From sequence record MT682711.1: a DNA stretch of 64,000 nucleotides; one strand, written 5' to 3'. This DNA comes from Escherichia phage vB_EcoM_FB. The notes beneath the pieces were generated by a model. It saw nothing but the letters and a program-made list of their open reading frames with translations. It did not search any database and had not been told where the DNA came from. Of this stretch, positions 7,282 through 62,965 are shown piece after piece; the stretch's first letter is position 1; every line of letters begins with the position of its first letter. The translations under genes were made by a program, and so were the position numbers.

Positions 7282-7787
7282 ATTGTTCTCAATTCAATAA
7301 AATCTACGAGTTCAGCATGGGATTTGCGGAACATTACTTGGCGGCCACCAATGACAACCTCATCTTCAGGGATTTCGTAAACGGCAAGATAGAATCCTTT
7401 AGAAGATAATTCTTCACGCTCTTCACGAGTGAACCAGCGCATCATATCATACTCACTGGCAAAAGCAAAATGGTAGAGATTAACAAACCAACCTGGAATA
7501 TAATCATCACAGCCTTCATAATCAGGCTGGTTCCACTTAGTTCGAATGGTTTTATTAGAATTTTCCACCAACAACTTGTCTTGACCTGGTAGTGGAATAT
7601 TTTTATTATTGGTATGGTGGTGTCTAAAATTAGGTTTGTCGAAACCTACTTCTAATAACCAACCTTCGCTCCATTCATCAAACGAGCCTCTATACGGTGT
7701 TAATTGGCGGCACTGTTGGTGAGTGATTGCTATAACATCGCTGTTATCTAAGATACTGAACGATGACTCCACTCGATAAATTTTCAT
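7278..7787 (-). CDS. hypothetical protein
   Basis: 169 aa ORF; GAGGAGAA Shine-Dalgarno; own promoter. Confidence 0.55.
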   Translation of the reverse strand: MKIYRVESSFSILDNSDVIAITHQQCRQLTPYRGSFDEWSEGWLLEVGFDKPNFRHHHTNNKNIPLPGQDKLLVENSNKTIRTKWNQPDYEGCDDYIPGWFVNLYHFAFASEYDMMRWFTREEREELSSKGFYLAVYEIPEDEVVIGGRQVMFRKSHAELVDFIELRTI

Positions 7788-11952: not shown

Positions 11953-12521
11953 TAAAAATCCAACATTTTTAAATGAATTGTTTTGTACTCGATTTCGTAC
12001 GGGTCCCTTTTGACGGTTTCGATTTCAACAATCTCAAATCTTGATAGGCTGGAGACCATGAACTCACATTCAGTTTCAACCATATCATAGAGGTCAATAC
12101 GGGTTTCATCTATTTCAAGCTCATCCACATTCCCTGCAAGAACAAGGTCGATAGCATGATTGTAGTAGTCGAAAATGAACGGTGCATTCCTGAGACTTAA
12201 AATGGTTTTGGTTCCATATTCCCATGCCCCTGCGAATTGACGAGCCTGAGAGTATTGTGTACTAAAAGAAGTAACTCGACCAGGAGACCATTGACAACCT
12301 ACTGAAAGGAGCTCTAATTGCTCAAGTTCTCTGGTGGTAATCCCACGATACAACTCTACTGGAACCGCTGAAGTAACATGCTTGCGAACCAGTTTGTCAA
12401 GGTCGTAATGGAAGTTAGGGTCTTTTTTAGCATCCAGACATTTTTCTAAAAGATTCTGTTCGTGTTTTGAGAATTTGGAATTGATTCGGTCTTGATAAAG
12501 ACATTTTTGTTCGATGTTCAT
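11952..12521 (-). CDS. ADP-ribosyltransferase, ModA/ModB-like
   Basis: 189 aa; LYRG...SFST...E motifs; tandem paralogue. Confidence 0.65.
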   Translation of the reverse strand: MNIEQKCLYQDRINSKFSKHEQNLLEKCLDAKKDPNFHYDLDKLVRKHVTSAVPVELYRGITTRELEQLELLSVGCQWSPGRVTSFSTQYSQARQFAGAWEYGTKTILSLRNAPFIFDYYNHAIDLVLAGNVDELEIDETRIDLYDMVETECEFMVSSLSRFEIVEIETVKRDPYEIEYKTIHLKMLDF

Positions 12522-14230: not shown

Positions 14231-14464
14231 TTAAACTACTGGGGTAGGCGTAAACATCGCCGCGTTCTTAGTTCGCCAATCGGCTGCATCAGTTACTACA
14301 GTAGTGTATGCCGCCTTTTCAGAAGGAAATGTCTGATAGTGTGCATTCGCAATACGATGCTCGTTTGAATAGATTTCAAACGGGACAGATACTTCAACAC
14401 CTTTAACTTCTTTACCTTCACCAGCCGGATGCGTAAAGGTTTTAATATTAACGAAACCACCCAT
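14231..14464 (-). CDS. soc: small outer capsid protein Soc
   Basis: 77 aa; VNIKTF...HYQTFPSEKAAY matches T4 Soc as recalled; late promoter upstream. Confidence 0.85.
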   Translation of the reverse strand: MGGFVNIKTFTHPAGEGKEVKGVEVSVPFEIYSNEHRIANAHYQTFPSEKAAYTTVVTDAADWRTKNAAMFTPTPVV

Positions 14465-14495
14465 AATTAACTCCTTTGTTGTTTAATTACAGGTG

Positions 14496-14503
14496 TATTT
14501 ATA
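14496..14503 (-). promoter_or_regulatory. late promoter TATAAATA
   Basis: rc of tatttata at 14496-14503, about 30 nt upstream of soc ATG. Confidence 0.65.
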
Positions 14504-18649: not shown

Positions 18650-18682
18650 GTCTATAGTATCACGCCTACAGGAGATGTAAAC
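18650..18682 (-). promoter_or_regulatory. early promoter (GTTTAC, TACTAT)
   Basis: gtaaac 18677-18682, atagta 18654-18659. Confidence 0.55.
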
Positions 18683-33023: not shown

Positions 33024-33218
33024 TTAATCAAAGTATTCATAAACGAACCAGGCAGGATTCCTGTTCGACATGATTCTATCATACTCTGACTTAAAAGCAT
33101 TTCGGAGATAATCTTCAGTAACAAGATGTTCGTCTCCAGAGAAGTTATTAACTAAAACATACCGCTTTAGTTCAGGAACGGCCAACAAATGCTGGCCTGT
33201 TATAAAATTAGAAGCCAT
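33024..33218 (-). CDS. hypothetical protein
   Basis: 64 aa ORF. Confidence 0.45.
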   Translation of the reverse strand: MASNFITGQHLLAVPELKRYVLVNNFSGDEHLVTEDYLRNAFKSEYDRIMSNRNPAWFVYEYFD

Positions 33219-33225
33219 ATAAATA
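33218..33225 (+). promoter_or_regulatory. late promoter TATAAATA on plus strand
   Basis: tataaata at 33218-33225, 37 nt upstream of the HNH gene ATG. Confidence 0.55.
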
Positions 33226-33261
33226 TCTTTATCGGTCGCTGTATCAAATAAGGATTTGATA

Positions 33262-33978
33262 ATGAATTATAAATCAATATACGAAAAGCTTATTCAACGA
33301 GCAGTTAATAGAAATTTAACTACCTATAAAGAACGTCATCACATTATACCACAATGTATGGGTGGAACGGATGACGCTTTAAACTTGGTAGACTTAACAC
33401 CTGAAGAACATTACTTGGCTCATCAGTTGTTAGTTAAAATCCATCCAGATAATGTATCACTAGTCTATGCGGCAAGAATGATGACAATTAGCTCACCAAA
33501 TGCTGATAGGTCTAAAAATAAATTATTTGGATGGCTTCGTCGTAAGAATTCAGAAGTCCAAAAGGATAAAGAATTCTCGGAAGAAACCAGAAAGAAAATG
33601 TCGATTTCTGCTTTAAAAAAGCCTAGAGTTACCTGTCCACACTGTGGTAAAACCGGTTTGGTAGGCAATATGAACAGATGGCATTTTGATAATTGTCCTA
33701 AAGGCCCTAATAAAGTGGTTCATACTATACCAAAAGAACAAAAAGATAAAATATCAAACACTTTTAAGAATAAAGTATTTGAATTGGTTAATTGCCAGTT
33801 TTGTGGTATAGAAGGTAAGAAGAGCGTTATAGTAACCCATCAATATTTTTGCAAATTAAACCCTAACCGTAAAAAGAAAGAGGACCCTAAAATAAAGTGT
33901 CCTCATTGCGATAAAGTAGGAATACCTGCCAATATGAAACGTTGGCATTTTGATAATTGCAAATTAAAGCCTCAATAA
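33262..33978 (+). mobile_element. free-standing HNH homing endonuclease gene with C-terminal zinc-ribbon repeats
   Basis: ERHHIIPQCMGG...NLV.L...EHYLAH HNH motif; three repeats of CPHC.K.G...NM.RWHFDNC; only plus-strand gene in the replication cluster, inserted between 46 and the rpbA-position gene. Confidence 0.7.
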
Positions 33979-38067: not shown

Positions 38068-38334
38068 TTAATCCTTTGGAGTCAATTCAATAGTGAAGTA
38101 GAAATTAGCGTTCTCAACATGATAACGATAATCTACGTTATTGTCAGGAGAAGTGAATTCAATATTCCTGACGTTAAGTGGGTCAATATCAATAGGAAGG
38201 CCTTTAACATCCCGTAATATCAATTTAATAAAATAAGGGAGTGCTTCGAAGTCTTCCATTCCATCTAAAAGTGGAGTGATATTAATCTGATGTTCCATAT
38301 AAAAAATCCAGTTCACCAACTTTAGGTTCGGCAC
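38068..38334 (-). CDS. hypothetical protein
   Basis: 88 aa ORF. Confidence 0.5.
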
Positions 38335-38839
38335 TCTTATCAGACCCTGGTGCTTTAGTTAAAGAGGTTTCATACTGAGTCATTTTGTCGTAGATATCTT
38401 GGATAAAGGTTTCATCTGCAATACCTACCATGTCGTCATCATTACTGTCATAGACATTATGGACGAAGTAGCTATATTTCTTTGCCATTTCTTTACGTTC
38501 TTTTTTGATACGCTGAACGAAGGCATTAAAACAAGCCATAGTGATATATGCATGTGGGTTGTCGTATTTTGTTTCGTCGAAATTGTGAAGACCTTTAATC
38601 GAAGCTTCGATTCCATCAGCTATCATTTCCTGCCGCCAAGATTGGGTATATCCTGAGAAGTTGAAACGCTTGCTGAGGCCTTCTGCTATAAGCATAATAG
38701 CCAATCCTATAGTATCATTTTGTCTAATGATTTTATTAGGGTCGGTGTTAGCATATAATTCCTGCTTCCAACTTGTAATAGCTTTAAGAAGCTCCTTGTT
38801 ATTTACATAATTATTTTTTGTTAACTTCACCTGATTCAT
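38282..38839 (-). CDS. 55: late-transcription sigma factor
   Basis: NYVNNKELL...[28 protein letters not shown]...[22 protein letters not shown] matches T4 gp55 as recalled; start set to ATG at 38839. Confidence 0.9.
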
Positions 38840-57891: not shown

Positions 57892-58350
57892 TCACAAGTA
57901 AATAACTTTCGTGCTGGTTTTACCTTCTAAACGTTTAGAGTTAACAAATGCCATACGACATTTAAGGGAATATCCTTTATCAGGATGTTTACGGTCTACT
58001 GTCATACCTAGCCATAAGGTTTTATCGGTAATTTCGAGACGCAATGGACGATACACTTTACCAGGGACAATTTCGGATTCTACATCAGGTAGAGGTTCCT
58101 GGATTAAAAATTCATGAATTTCTTTAACATGGTTATGGAGTTGCTTGAATAAAGCAAAAACGTATTTTTCGTCGATTTCACGTTGGATAGCACGGTCCAA
58201 CAAGTGATTAGAGTACTTAATAAAGAAGGCTGGGACTCCGCTCTTGATGGCGGCTTTTTTGATGGACGTATTCAGTTCACGGAATTCGGTTTCGAACTGA
58301 CGACGTAATTTATTGCGGCGGATGAATACTTCTGAATTAATTTCTGACAT
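57892..58350 (-). CDS. regB: RegB site-specific endoribonuclease
   Basis: 152 aa; EVFIRRNKLRR...HLLDRAIQREIDE...LEITD resembles T4 RegB as recalled. Confidence 0.85.
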   Translation of the reverse strand: MSEINSEVFIRRNKLRRQFETEFRELNTSIKKAAIKSGVPAFFIKYSNHLLDRAIQREIDEKYVFALFKQLHNHVKEIHEFLIQEPLPDVESEIVPGKVYRPLRLEITDKTLWLGMTVDRKHPDKGYSLKCRMAFVNSKRLEGKTSTKVIYL

Positions 58351-60927: not shown

Positions 60928-61524
60928 TTAATTACCACGGGCTGCATTAGCAACGGCGTAAGCGTACTGAATATTAGCGTCTTTAAACGTACCTTTAGAG
61001 GTATCTATCTCTGCCTTAAAGCCGCCTTTAACCATAACATCAGCAAATTCTTTACGGAAAGTCATTGCATCAAGACCTTTCCATGCGGATTTATGCTTGG
61101 CAAATTCAAGACCGGCGAAGTTAACTGCTTTAGCCAATTTATTATCAATAGTCCATTTACCTGCTTTAGGTACAAACACCGGGCCTTTCTGTTTAGAGAA
61201 CAGTTTTAAATTCCAGCGACGAAGGTCACCGTCAGCTTTAACAAAAGCTGCGTCCAAGTTACTAGCAACAACATCTTGGATATGGGCAAATTTAAGTCCA
61301 TCAGCTTCAATATTTAGGTCGTTACGCCAGCGAAGTCCTTCCCAGGCGAAAGCTTTAAAGTCGGAAGCTTTTGTAGCCAAGTACCGTTCAATAGGAGCTG
61401 TTTTAGCGTCAAAACCGTTTCCTGGGTTGTCAACGCCGTTTCCTTTGTAAGTCCACTCATCTTTATTAATGCCTTGGACCTTTCCTACAGAAGCTTCGGC
61501 GATAAATTCTTTATACGTTTTCAT
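60928..61524 (-). CDS. internal protein (IPIII-like) with capsid targeting sequence
   Basis: 198 aa; MKTYKEFIAE|A N-terminus. Confidence 0.65.
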   Translation of the reverse strand: MKTYKEFIAEASVGKVQGINKDEWTYKGNGVDNPGNGFDAKTAPIERYLATKASDFKAFAWEGLRWRNDLNIEADGLKFAHIQDVVASNLDAAFVKADGDLRRWNLKLFSKQKGPVFVPKAGKWTIDNKLAKAVNFAGLEFAKHKSAWKGLDAMTFRKEFADVMVKGGFKAEIDTSKGTFKDANIQYAYAVANAARGN

Positions 61525-61573
61525 ACGGGTTCCTTAAAGGTAAATATTTTAATTGGTCTGTTCAAGTAACTGT

Positions 61574-61606
61574 AGATATACTATCACAATTCTAGGAGAT
61601 GTAAAC
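61574..61606 (-). promoter_or_regulatory. early promoter (GTTTAC, TAGTAT)
   Basis: gtaaac 61601-61606; atacta 61578-61583. Confidence 0.5.
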
Positions 61607-62005
61607 TTATTTATGGGTCTTCATCCAATTCTTGAACAAAGCCGCGACGTCTTTCTCTTTAACGTTCAGTTTAATGTCCAACATTTTACCACCCGCTGCT
61701 CTGGTTTGGCGAATCTTAGCAGTACCGGTTTCGCCATTCCACTCAACATAATACTGTCCAGTGTTCATTGCAATACCATCACCGTAGTCTTCATTTTTAG
61801 AAGTGGTGAATGCTAGCTTCATAGTCTTAGATACACGAGCCTGCATGCCTGTCTGAAGGGCATTACGAACGCGAATAACCTGAGGAGTGGCCTGGGTCAA
61901 GTTCTCATTCAGTTCTTCAGTGAACTCTTCAGATTCAAACATCGCCAAAAGTTCTTTAGATGCAGGAATTACATTCTCTGCGATAAATTCATTATAAGTT
62001 TTCAT
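61607..62005 (-). CDS. internal protein with capsid targeting sequence
   Basis: 132 aa; [10 protein letters not shown]|N N-terminus; butt-joined to lysozyme gene. Confidence 0.6.
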
Positions 62006-62486
62006 ATGCTTTCCAAGTACCTGTTTTAAATGTTGAAATCACGCGCTTAGCACGATTAGGAGTTTGTTTATACCAACGGGATTGAGCCAGGTTAACTGCC
62101 GCATCGTTCCAACGTTTCTGTTGGAGCATACGTAAAGAGTTAGTGAACCCTGCTACGCCTGCTTCACCCATTTGGAAGACCATGTTAATTAAAGCACAAC
62201 GACGAACTTCGTCCAGTACATCATAAACAGGTTTCAATTTAGGATTACGCAGAATAGCTCTACGAGCATTTTCAACCGATCGATTAAAGAGTTGCTCGGC
62301 TTCAGCCATAGTAATACGACCATTACAAACTCGACCCATAAGCTTATCAAGTTCAGCGCGAGCAACGTCTTTAGATGGGTTCTTGGTAATCAACTGACCA
62401 ATGCCAATAGTCCAATAACCTTCGGTGTCTTTATAAAGATTTAAATCAAGACCTTCGTCTTGACGTAACATATCAAAAATATCCAT
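61992..62486 (-). CDS. e: lysozyme (endolysin e)
   Basis: 164 aa; catalytic E and D in [25 protein letters not shown]; similar along its length to T4 lysozyme as recalled. Confidence 0.95.
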
Positions 62487-62507
62487 AATACCTCCGAGTA
62501 TAGGAGG

Positions 62508-62515
62508 TATTTATA
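62508..62515 (-). promoter_or_regulatory. late promoter TATAAATA followed by anti-SD hairpin
   Basis: rc of tatttata at 62508-62515; tacctcc (62489-62495) / ggaggta (62503-62509) inverted repeat covers the SD. Confidence 0.65.
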
Positions 62516-62965
62516 TCAAAAGAGCGAACTCAAAACTTTATACATCGACGGGCCCATGACATATTCCCATTGCGGACGTTTAATCAAAGCGAACGCATCG
62601 AATTCAGGAATCGTACGGCCGTCAGGGAACGTATGGTAAGCTGTACATTTGCAATCCTTGAACTGCTCGTGTTCCACAGGCACTGTATATAAGAACAGAT
62701 GTAGATTCTTATTGCTTGAATATTTGAACTCACCTAGGTCTTTCAGGAATGCAGGATCGTATGCTGTGAATCCAATCTCTTCTTCGGTTTCGCGCATTGC
62801 CGCTTGAATAGGCTCTTCGCCTGGTTCGACATGACCTTTAGGAATGTCCCATTTATGACGCATGTTCTCTGGATTACGAGAGCCTGTTACACGACCCATG
62901 ACCAGTTCTTTATCAACGGTCATGAACAAAATACCTGCCGATAATTCCTTAGCTTTCTTACCCAT
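62516..62965 (-). CDS. nudE: Nudix hydrolase
   Basis: Nudix box GHVEPGEEPIQAAMRETEEEIGF; start set to ATG at 62965 (MGKKAKE), 149 aa versus 151 in T4 NudE. Confidence 0.8.
   Translation of the reverse strand: MGKKAKELSAGILFMTVDKELVMGRVTGSRNPENMRHKWDIPKGHVEPGEEPIQAAMRETEEEIGFTAYDPAFLKDLGEFKYSSNKNLHLFLYTVPVEHEQFKDCKCTAYHTFPDGRTIPEFDAFALIKRPQWEYVMGPSMYKVLSSLF

Follow-up and report, generated by a model that had tools for sequence, protein, structure and literature searches.

The lysozyme gene e of Escherichia phage vB_EcoM_FB (record MT682711.1), located in the stretch of 64,000 nucleotides that we analyzed (hereafter, the window), very probably carries a T4 gene e-type switch that controls the timing of translation. 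During early infection, long RNAs coming in through the upstream gene nudE would be the only transcripts to include the gene, at their tail end. In this early RNA, AAUACCUCC would pair with GGAGGUAUU, placing the Shine-Dalgarno sequence (SD) inside a 9-bp hairpin; with the SD buried, it is proposed that 30S subunits cannot bind and that, therefore, no lysozyme is made. Once DNA replication begins, the gp55-RNA polymerase would recognise the late promoter box TATAAATA and start at about U62502. The resulting late RNA would be devoid of the entire 5' arm, making the strong hairpin impossible and allowing lysozyme to be translated. Behind this reading are the sequence elements of the leader, the orthology of the gene, the structures and energies predicted for the RNA, a gp55 homologue in the window, and a hairpin that has persisted in different lineages; how strongly translation is affected in this phage is something that we infer.

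Since publications already cover both how the switch works and that T4-type phages conserve it, the finding is already known, and the e leader described here is a correct recognition of a known mechanism in a new isolate. Two details are new: a one-base deletion in this isolate with a predicted effect on two competing hairpins, and the observation that helix strength is kept while the base pairs change across genera. The comparative value of the latter is modest (depending on the genus, the helix has moved outward or inward, yet its strength is held at about -9 to -14 kcal/mol), and the known picture is unchanged, with the addition of a leader variant, possibly natural, that is one base shorter. 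Early lysozyme synthesis risks premature lysis, and a hairpin combined with an internal promoter is textbook temporal control without a regulatory protein. With an intact switch in another Dhakavirus isolate, the e gene, its start codon and its late promoter are also confirmed as annotated.

The lysozyme gene (61992..62486, minus strand) encodes a T4-type lysozyme (endolysin) of 164 aa, identified with phmmer and with the Pfam family Phage_lysozyme. Its product matched T4 lysozyme chains over residues 1-164 (phmmer, E=9.1e-82), with 74% identity to T4 e. Immediately upstream, also on the minus strand, lies a NUDIX hydrolase gene (62516..62965; Pfam NUDIX E=7.6e-15), whose product is 61% identical to T4 NudE and which is annotated as nudE in relatives. 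The nearest related record is 97.8% identical to the window over 1.2 kb, and the genes of the relatives are annotated as nudE and e. By these similarities, we assign the source of the window to the JS98-like T4 relatives of the genus Dhakavirus, and the gene at 61992-62486 is identified as the T4 e orthologue in a conserved nudE-e context. The window also contains a homologue of gene 55, the late sigma factor reading TATAAATA (38285..38818, minus strand), detected by tblastn with T4 gp55 as query (79% identity over 179 aa, E=6e-95); judged by this homology, it is the trans-acting part of the switch. A tRNA scan of the window found no tRNA genes.

The intergenic space between nudE and e is 29 nt and is wholly taken up by box, hairpin and SD. 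The minus strand reads ...CTC TTT TGA, TATAAATA, CCTCC, TATACTC, GGAGG, TATT, ATG GAT ATT TTT GAT. An earlier sequence-only reading had given this order of elements for positions 62486-62515; all its parts read back as quoted, and its coordinates are exact. The UGA stop of nudE (62518-62516) abuts the late promoter box (62515-62508), which is an exact copy of the T4-type consensus and corresponds to positions -13 to -6 of the late promoter. The CCTCC motif (62507-62503; positions -5..-1) had been described as beginning within two bases of the box. The two are in fact adjoining, with an offset of 0 bases, so that the arm comes directly after the box. CCUCC had also been described as pairing with GGAGG. 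The SD is indeed paired with the upstream arm, but the helix has 9 bp rather than 5, and the last four bases of the promoter box are part of it. Its 5' arm, the anti-SD AAUACCUCC, spans 62511-62503 (-9 to -1 of the late promoter). Its 3' arm, GGAGGUAUU (62495-62487), is formed by the SD GGAGG (62495-62491) and the 4-nt spacer TATT (62490-62487), and ends at the base preceding the AUG (ATG at 62486-62484). The 7-nt loop between the arms, UAUACUC (DNA TATACTC; 62502-62496), includes the predicted late start, U62502 (or A62501). All of these leader elements are on the minus strand.

Folding predictions returned the 9-bp helix with its 7-nt loop both as the minimum free energy (MFE) structure and as the centroid structure, and the isolated early hairpin has an energy of -11.5 kcal/mol. 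In read-through RNAs of several lengths, the predicted probability that GGAGG is unpaired is 0.000, and the predicted cost of opening it is 10-11 kcal/mol. A stable helix between the SD and an upstream arm is thus predicted in long transcripts, as in a leader of the T4 e type. From the end of the window (64000) to the leader, the minus strand showed neither a sigma70-like promoter nor a terminator-like site. The best candidate promoter upstream of e in JS98 lies at a distance of ~3.4 kb, and no terminator separates it from the gene. Given that no promoter or terminator intervenes, transcripts entering from upstream should run into e, and early read-through RNA would reach e through nudE in this phage. 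No intrinsic terminator was scored on the minus strand at the leader itself, where the helix is followed by AUGGAUAUUUUUG and not by a U-run; on these two observations, we rejected the reading of the leader as a terminator. The only Rfam family matching the leader was Phe_leader, on the plus strand and at 19.6 bits versus a gathering threshold of 55 (E=0.74), and it was rejected.

The inverted repeat could alternatively act on the opposite strand or as DNA, either as an antisense (plus-strand) terminator or as an operator whose bound protein would block the late promoter. In JS98 (L086 3592-3613), the reverse complement of the hairpin together with TTTATATC scores as terminator-like, and operators overlapping late promoters are known for T4 intron endonucleases, e.g., I-TevI at its own late promoter (PMC2988022). 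However, the copy in the window is not scored as a terminator, and there is no plus-strand gene or promoter directed into the site: the sole nearby sigma70-like match on the plus strand (62460-62489) is inside the e start region, and the count of such matches is within chance. Nor is any candidate binding protein known for the operator version. We thus consider a role on the opposite strand or as DNA to be very improbable.

In T4, the late box is placed at -13 to -6 (Nolan et al. 2006, PMC1524935). Applied to the window, this spacing puts the late +1 at U62502, the first base of the loop and one base past the 5' arm. Since the whole 5' arm then lies at -9..-1, it would be missing from the late RNA. 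The start expected at U62502 agrees with the sequence-only proposal that late transcripts begin inside or after the CCUCC arm. In RNAs starting at 62502 or 62501, the predicted opening cost of GGAGG is 5.3-6.1 kcal/mol, about 4.4-5 kcal/mol lower than in early RNA. As in a T4 e-type leader, the SD is thus predicted to be markedly more accessible in late than in early RNA, although no other leader that we examined shows so small a drop. The further proposal that late transcripts expose the SD is supported by the predicted fall in opening cost, but a G·U-rich hairpin of -5.4 kcal/mol is predicted to keep the SD partly covered.

In this weak alternative hairpin of the late mRNA (62473..62497, minus strand), UCGGAGGUAUU (62497-62487) would pair with GAUAUUUUUGA (62483-62473, codons 2-4), leaving the AUG as a 3-nt loop. 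The stem includes four G·U pairs, and the -5.4 kcal/mol refers to the hairpin folded in isolation. The residual late opening cost is explained by this pairing with codons 2-4, as is the fact that the early-to-late drop is smaller than that of T4; in the folding model, then, the late mRNA is not fully open at its SD. According to de Smit and van Duin, a hairpin of -5.4 kcal/mol is reportedly near the stability below which structures in the initiation region cease to matter. Being close to that limit, the late hairpin is expected to cause little inhibition.

The T4 e gene provides the experimental precedent. Its early long transcripts form an inhibitory structure and give ~100-fold less lysozyme (McPheeters et al. 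1986, NAR 14:5813, via PMC3014915), while RNAs from either of two late promoters are translated well, as the 5' portion of the structure is missing from them (McPheeters 1986 via PMC3014915; the mapped late 5' ends of T4 were taken from the text of this review). Similar leaders have been predicted in closely related T4-type phages, with the late promoter in the region of the 5' strand (Uzan & Miller 2010, Virol J 7:360, Fig. 5A, PMC3014915). The sequence-only reading had equated the arrangement in the window with the one established for T4 gene e, and rightly so: the review states the proposed mechanism (PMC3014915), and the layout of the T4 leader matches. That reading had also named a comparison with the T4 e leader as a check, and the comparison gives the same order of nudE stop, box, anti-SD, loop, SD and AUG. 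The T4 leader (TAA-ttt-TATAAATACCTTCTATAAATACTTAGGAGGTATT-ATG) belongs to an orthologous gene with the same upstream neighbour, nudE, and the same gene order. It likewise has TATAAATA directly followed by a C/U-rich anti-SD arm, and it is identical in the SD GGAGG, the UAUU spacer, the AUG and the outer helix AAUACC.../...GGUAUU. The predicted hairpin energies are also similar (-12.3 kcal/mol in T4 and -11.5 kcal/mol in the window).

The two leaders also differ in several respects. The stem of the T4 hairpin is 11 bp long, one of them a G·U pair, and its loop measures 8 nt, in contrast to 9 bp and 7 nt in the window. T4 has two TATAAATA boxes, the second of them in the loop, whereas the window has one; by this comparison of sequences, the window has lost the second box relative to T4. 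With the same calculation, opening the SD of T4 costs ~14 kcal/mol in early RNA, and 3.4 (promoter 1) or ~1 kcal/mol (promoter 2) in late RNA, a range of 1-3.5 kcal/mol. The logic is shared with other late genes in early units for which hairpins sequestering the ribosome binding site are known, namely T4 soc, gene 49, I-TevI and segB, and mobE of phage Aeh1 (PMC3014915, PMC2988022). In all of these, RNA from a proximal late promoter leaves out the 5' arm, and transcripts initiated upstream are translationally silent. The genes concerned are other than e.

A further difference from T4 bears on how tight the switch may be. From the nudE UGA to the first paired base (62511) there is a spacer of 4 nt, compared to 6-7 nt from the nudE stop to the helix in T4. 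Ribosomes terminating at the nudE stop might thus fray the helix and allow some early coupling. If so, the switch could be leaky through translational coupling: ribosomes ending at the UGA would open the helix, and the hairpin would set a coupling ratio instead of an off state. However, a ribosome at the stop would, from the known ribosome footprint, reach just the first one to three of the 9 bp, and early lysozyme in T4 is some 100-fold lower despite a similar arrangement (PMC3014915). Both points argue for a switch that is off early, and we find it hard to believe that coupling is the main function of the hairpin.

Another explanation is that the hairpin mainly protects or processes RNA, by shielding the GGAG of the e SD from the nuclease RegB, or as a stability or processing element within the early polycistronic RNA. 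RegB cuts GGAG in the SD regions of early mRNAs (PMC3014915), and the window does contain a regB homologue (57901-58341, 58% identity to T4 RegB); SDs bearing GGAG are also buried in hairpins at several other genes of the window. Yet the same structure in T4 has been shown to block translation initiation (PMC3014915), and there is no obvious benefit in protecting an early message that is untranslated. Protection of the RNA also leaves unexplained why, in every lineage, the late promoter is placed so that it excludes exactly the 5' arm. We deem a mainly protective or processing role very unlikely.

For comparison, we collected e loci from IMG/VR and from T4 itself. Across 12 aligned leaders ATAAATAC is invariant, and only the first base of the box varies (T/A/G), in agreement with the published variability at position -13 of the late box (PMC1524935). 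The pairing partners do differ. In T4 and Dhakavirus leaders, they are AAUACCUCC(U) and (A)GGAGGUAUU. Those of L007 and L018 are AAUACCCCU and GGGGGUAUU; here, GGGGG has taken the place of the SD sequence and CCCC that of the arm. The corresponding pairs are CUCCUAUC/GAUAGGAG in PEi20-like leaders, ACCUCCUAU/AUAGGAGGU in PM2, and ACUCCUAUA/UAUAGGAGU in L017. In these relatives, the predicted cost of opening the SD is 8.6-15.6 kcal/mol in early and 1.1-4.4 kcal/mol in late RNA. In more distant lysozyme loci the hairpin fades, with 4-9 kcal/mol to open the SD in some 30-kb contigs and about 0-3 kcal/mol in remote homologues. One IMG/VR contig of 183 kb (L021, 1430-1500) contains an e homologue (65% identity) preceded by a 14-bp hairpin that buries the SD and costs 15.6 kcal/mol to open. 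CTAAATA, which has been reported as a variant late promoter in Aeromonas phage Aeh1, is present in the loop region of this hairpin and suggests the same switch on a different late box.

The closest leaders are those of other Dhakavirus genomes (JS98, IME08, Bp7 and others), which are 91-95% identical to the leader of the window over 80 nt (best, 95.1%). They have the same box and arms, and differ by an extra A. Where the window reads CTC-GGAGG, CTCAGGAGG is found in every one of 49 related GenBank records and in 4 IMG/VR contigs, so that the window has one A fewer, at 62496/62495. This missing base may reflect either natural variation or an error in sequencing. Relatives with the extra A have a 10-bp stem and a 6-nt loop, and their predicted SD opening costs are 11.3 kcal/mol early and 4.0 kcal/mol late, the latter compared to 6.1 kcal/mol in the window. 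With the deletion, the early stem is one pair shorter (9 instead of 10 bp), and the predicted late hairpin between the SD and the coding region is longer. The small early/late contrast of the window is due, in part, to this private one-base deletion.

We also asked how far these observations could be expected by chance, namely whether the leader might be a chance palindrome, formed by an A/T-rich box beside a strong SD and a UAUU spacer and with no regulatory role here. Three results are in line with this possibility. The box TATAAATA is not enriched in the window (5 in 64 kb, versus 7.0 expected), the fold of the 71-nt region has a z-score of only -1.29, and a search for column-wise covariation was negative. 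As for the box, 5/5 copies are just upstream of an ORF on the same strand (a soc-like gene, a 53-aa ORF, an HNH endonuclease, a lipoprotein-like ORF, and e); it is the position relative to ORFs that is the informative feature, and not the count. The z-score of the whole-region fold is uninformative, and SD-opening energies and targeted shuffles were used in its place. After shuffling the 5' half of the leader, 0/500 sequences reached the energy of the real hairpin (0-1 of 500 across leaders). Occlusion of the SD by 10 kcal/mol or more occurred in 6/575 controls with shuffled upstream sequence (1.0%). Opening the SD of e costs 10.5 kcal/mol, against a median of 2.1 kcal/mol, and ranks 7 of 115 crude gene starts.

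The comparison between lineages points in the same direction. All 11 distinct leaders have an SD-burying hairpin (11/11; -9.0 to -14.1 kcal/mol) with differing base pairs, so that the hairpin has been kept while the sequence and the register of its arms changed. When the 5' and 3' halves of 8 lineage representatives were recombined, the mean energy was -12.0 kcal/mol for cognate halves versus -9.4 kcal/mol for chimeras (permutation p≈1e-4, in an alignment-free test that treats lineages without correction for shared ancestry). The column-wise test counted paired cells in a covariance model alignment (MAFFT alignment, covariance model R1): 66.5% of the cells were paired, no better than in shuffles, and there was one double change. 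This negative outcome is explained by the alignment having kept the sequence register, while the register of the helix shifts between lineages; the ACCUCC and ACUCC groups are one column out of structural register. The column-wise test can therefore not serve as support, and the case for selection rests on the alignment-free test. Against these results, the origin of the leader as a chance palindrome appears very unlikely.

The sequence-only reading had taken the e leader as support for a promoter and hairpin reading elsewhere in the window. This was not borne out. Folding predicted no SD hairpin at the other four genes preceded by TATAAATA, with an early cost of SD opening of 0.1-3.4 kcal/mol, and the other SD-burying hairpins of the window are found at early sigma70-type promoters. 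One of the four is a soc-like gene (14231-14503, minus strand) with a AHYQTFPSEKAAY motif. Its TATAAATA box adjoins the stop codon of the preceding gene, and the soc-like gene lies 31 nt further on. Folding gave it no hairpin that would sequester the SD (1.1 kcal/mol to open in the early form), unlike what has been reported for T4 soc. Another is an ORF similar to HNH homing endonucleases (33218-33978, plus strand), located on the strand opposite to its neighbours and with a TATAAATA box in front. Its leader has an 8-bp hairpin (UAUCAAAU/AUUUGAUA), and the AAGG of its SD is presented in the loop, directly before the AUG.

The hairpins at early promoters follow a recurrent design on the minus strand: GTTTAC(A/T), an anti-SD arm (e.g., TCTCCTGTAG), GATACTAT, and further downstream CTACAGGAGA and the ATG. 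This cassette is located upstream of the ORF starts at 7787, 41550, 48992, 58350 (the regB homologue) and 60847 (denV). A variant form precedes the ORF start at 12521, and there are degenerate copies at 18671-18682 and at 61595-61606; all of these are on the minus strand. The anti-SD arm occupies the spacer between the -35 and -10 elements of a sigma70-type promoter, and the helix has 10-12 bp and requires 11-16 kcal/mol to open the SD. Compensatory swaps are seen between copies (TCTCCTGTAG/CTACAGGAGA versus TCTCCAGTAG/CTACTGGAGG, and CTCATG/CATGAG). The sequence GTTTACNNCTCC occurs 9 times, always on the minus strand, versus 3.1 expected. In T4 (locus L088), we found the same design at denV (9356), nearly base for base, and at regB (6741). 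According to the predicted structures, read-through RNA would bury the SD of a cassette gene, and RNA from the cassette's own promoter could not.

These early cassettes resemble the PeSL cassettes of T4-type phages, which are repeated between genes and consist of a sigma70-type early promoter, an SD, a start codon and a stem-loop that can be located within the -35/-10 spacer (Arbiol 2010, PMC2839356; Comeau 2014, PMC4122927). The likeness concerns the early cassettes only, since PeSL have an early promoter and the e leader a late one. We considered the PeSL literature as an account of the early-promoter hairpins of the window. It is related, but the stem-loops are described there as terminators or recombination linkers, and not as SD-sequestering (PMC2839356, PMC4122927), and we did not adopt it as an explanation. 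We found no description of an SD-sequestering early-promoter hairpin at denV or regB in the literature searched, a search mostly outside the older T4 literature.

Taken together with the cassettes, the e leader might be one case of a genome-wide rule of the T4 group, by which a gene is translated only from transcripts of its own promoter. The basis for such a rule would be the at least six early-promoter cassettes of the window (including denV and regB) and the denV and regB leaders of T4. Within this rule, the one-base deletion is predicted to weaken the early e hairpin and to strengthen the late hairpin between SD and coding region, and may tune lysozyme output or the timing of lysis. We put this forward as a tentative idea, about which we remain rather doubtful.

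Downstream of e, we identified two internal-protein genes with the capsid-targeting sequence MKTY.EFIAE (60928-62005, minus strand), in an order opposite to that of JS98 (L086 4192-5227). The order in the window is e, a homologue of orf114 (96%), a homologue of ipIII (95%), and denV. There is a 14-nt overlap between the orf114 homologue and the end of e, and the early-promoter cassette copy at 61595-61606 is found between the two internal-protein genes. The swapped gene order is consistent with cassette-mediated shuffling.
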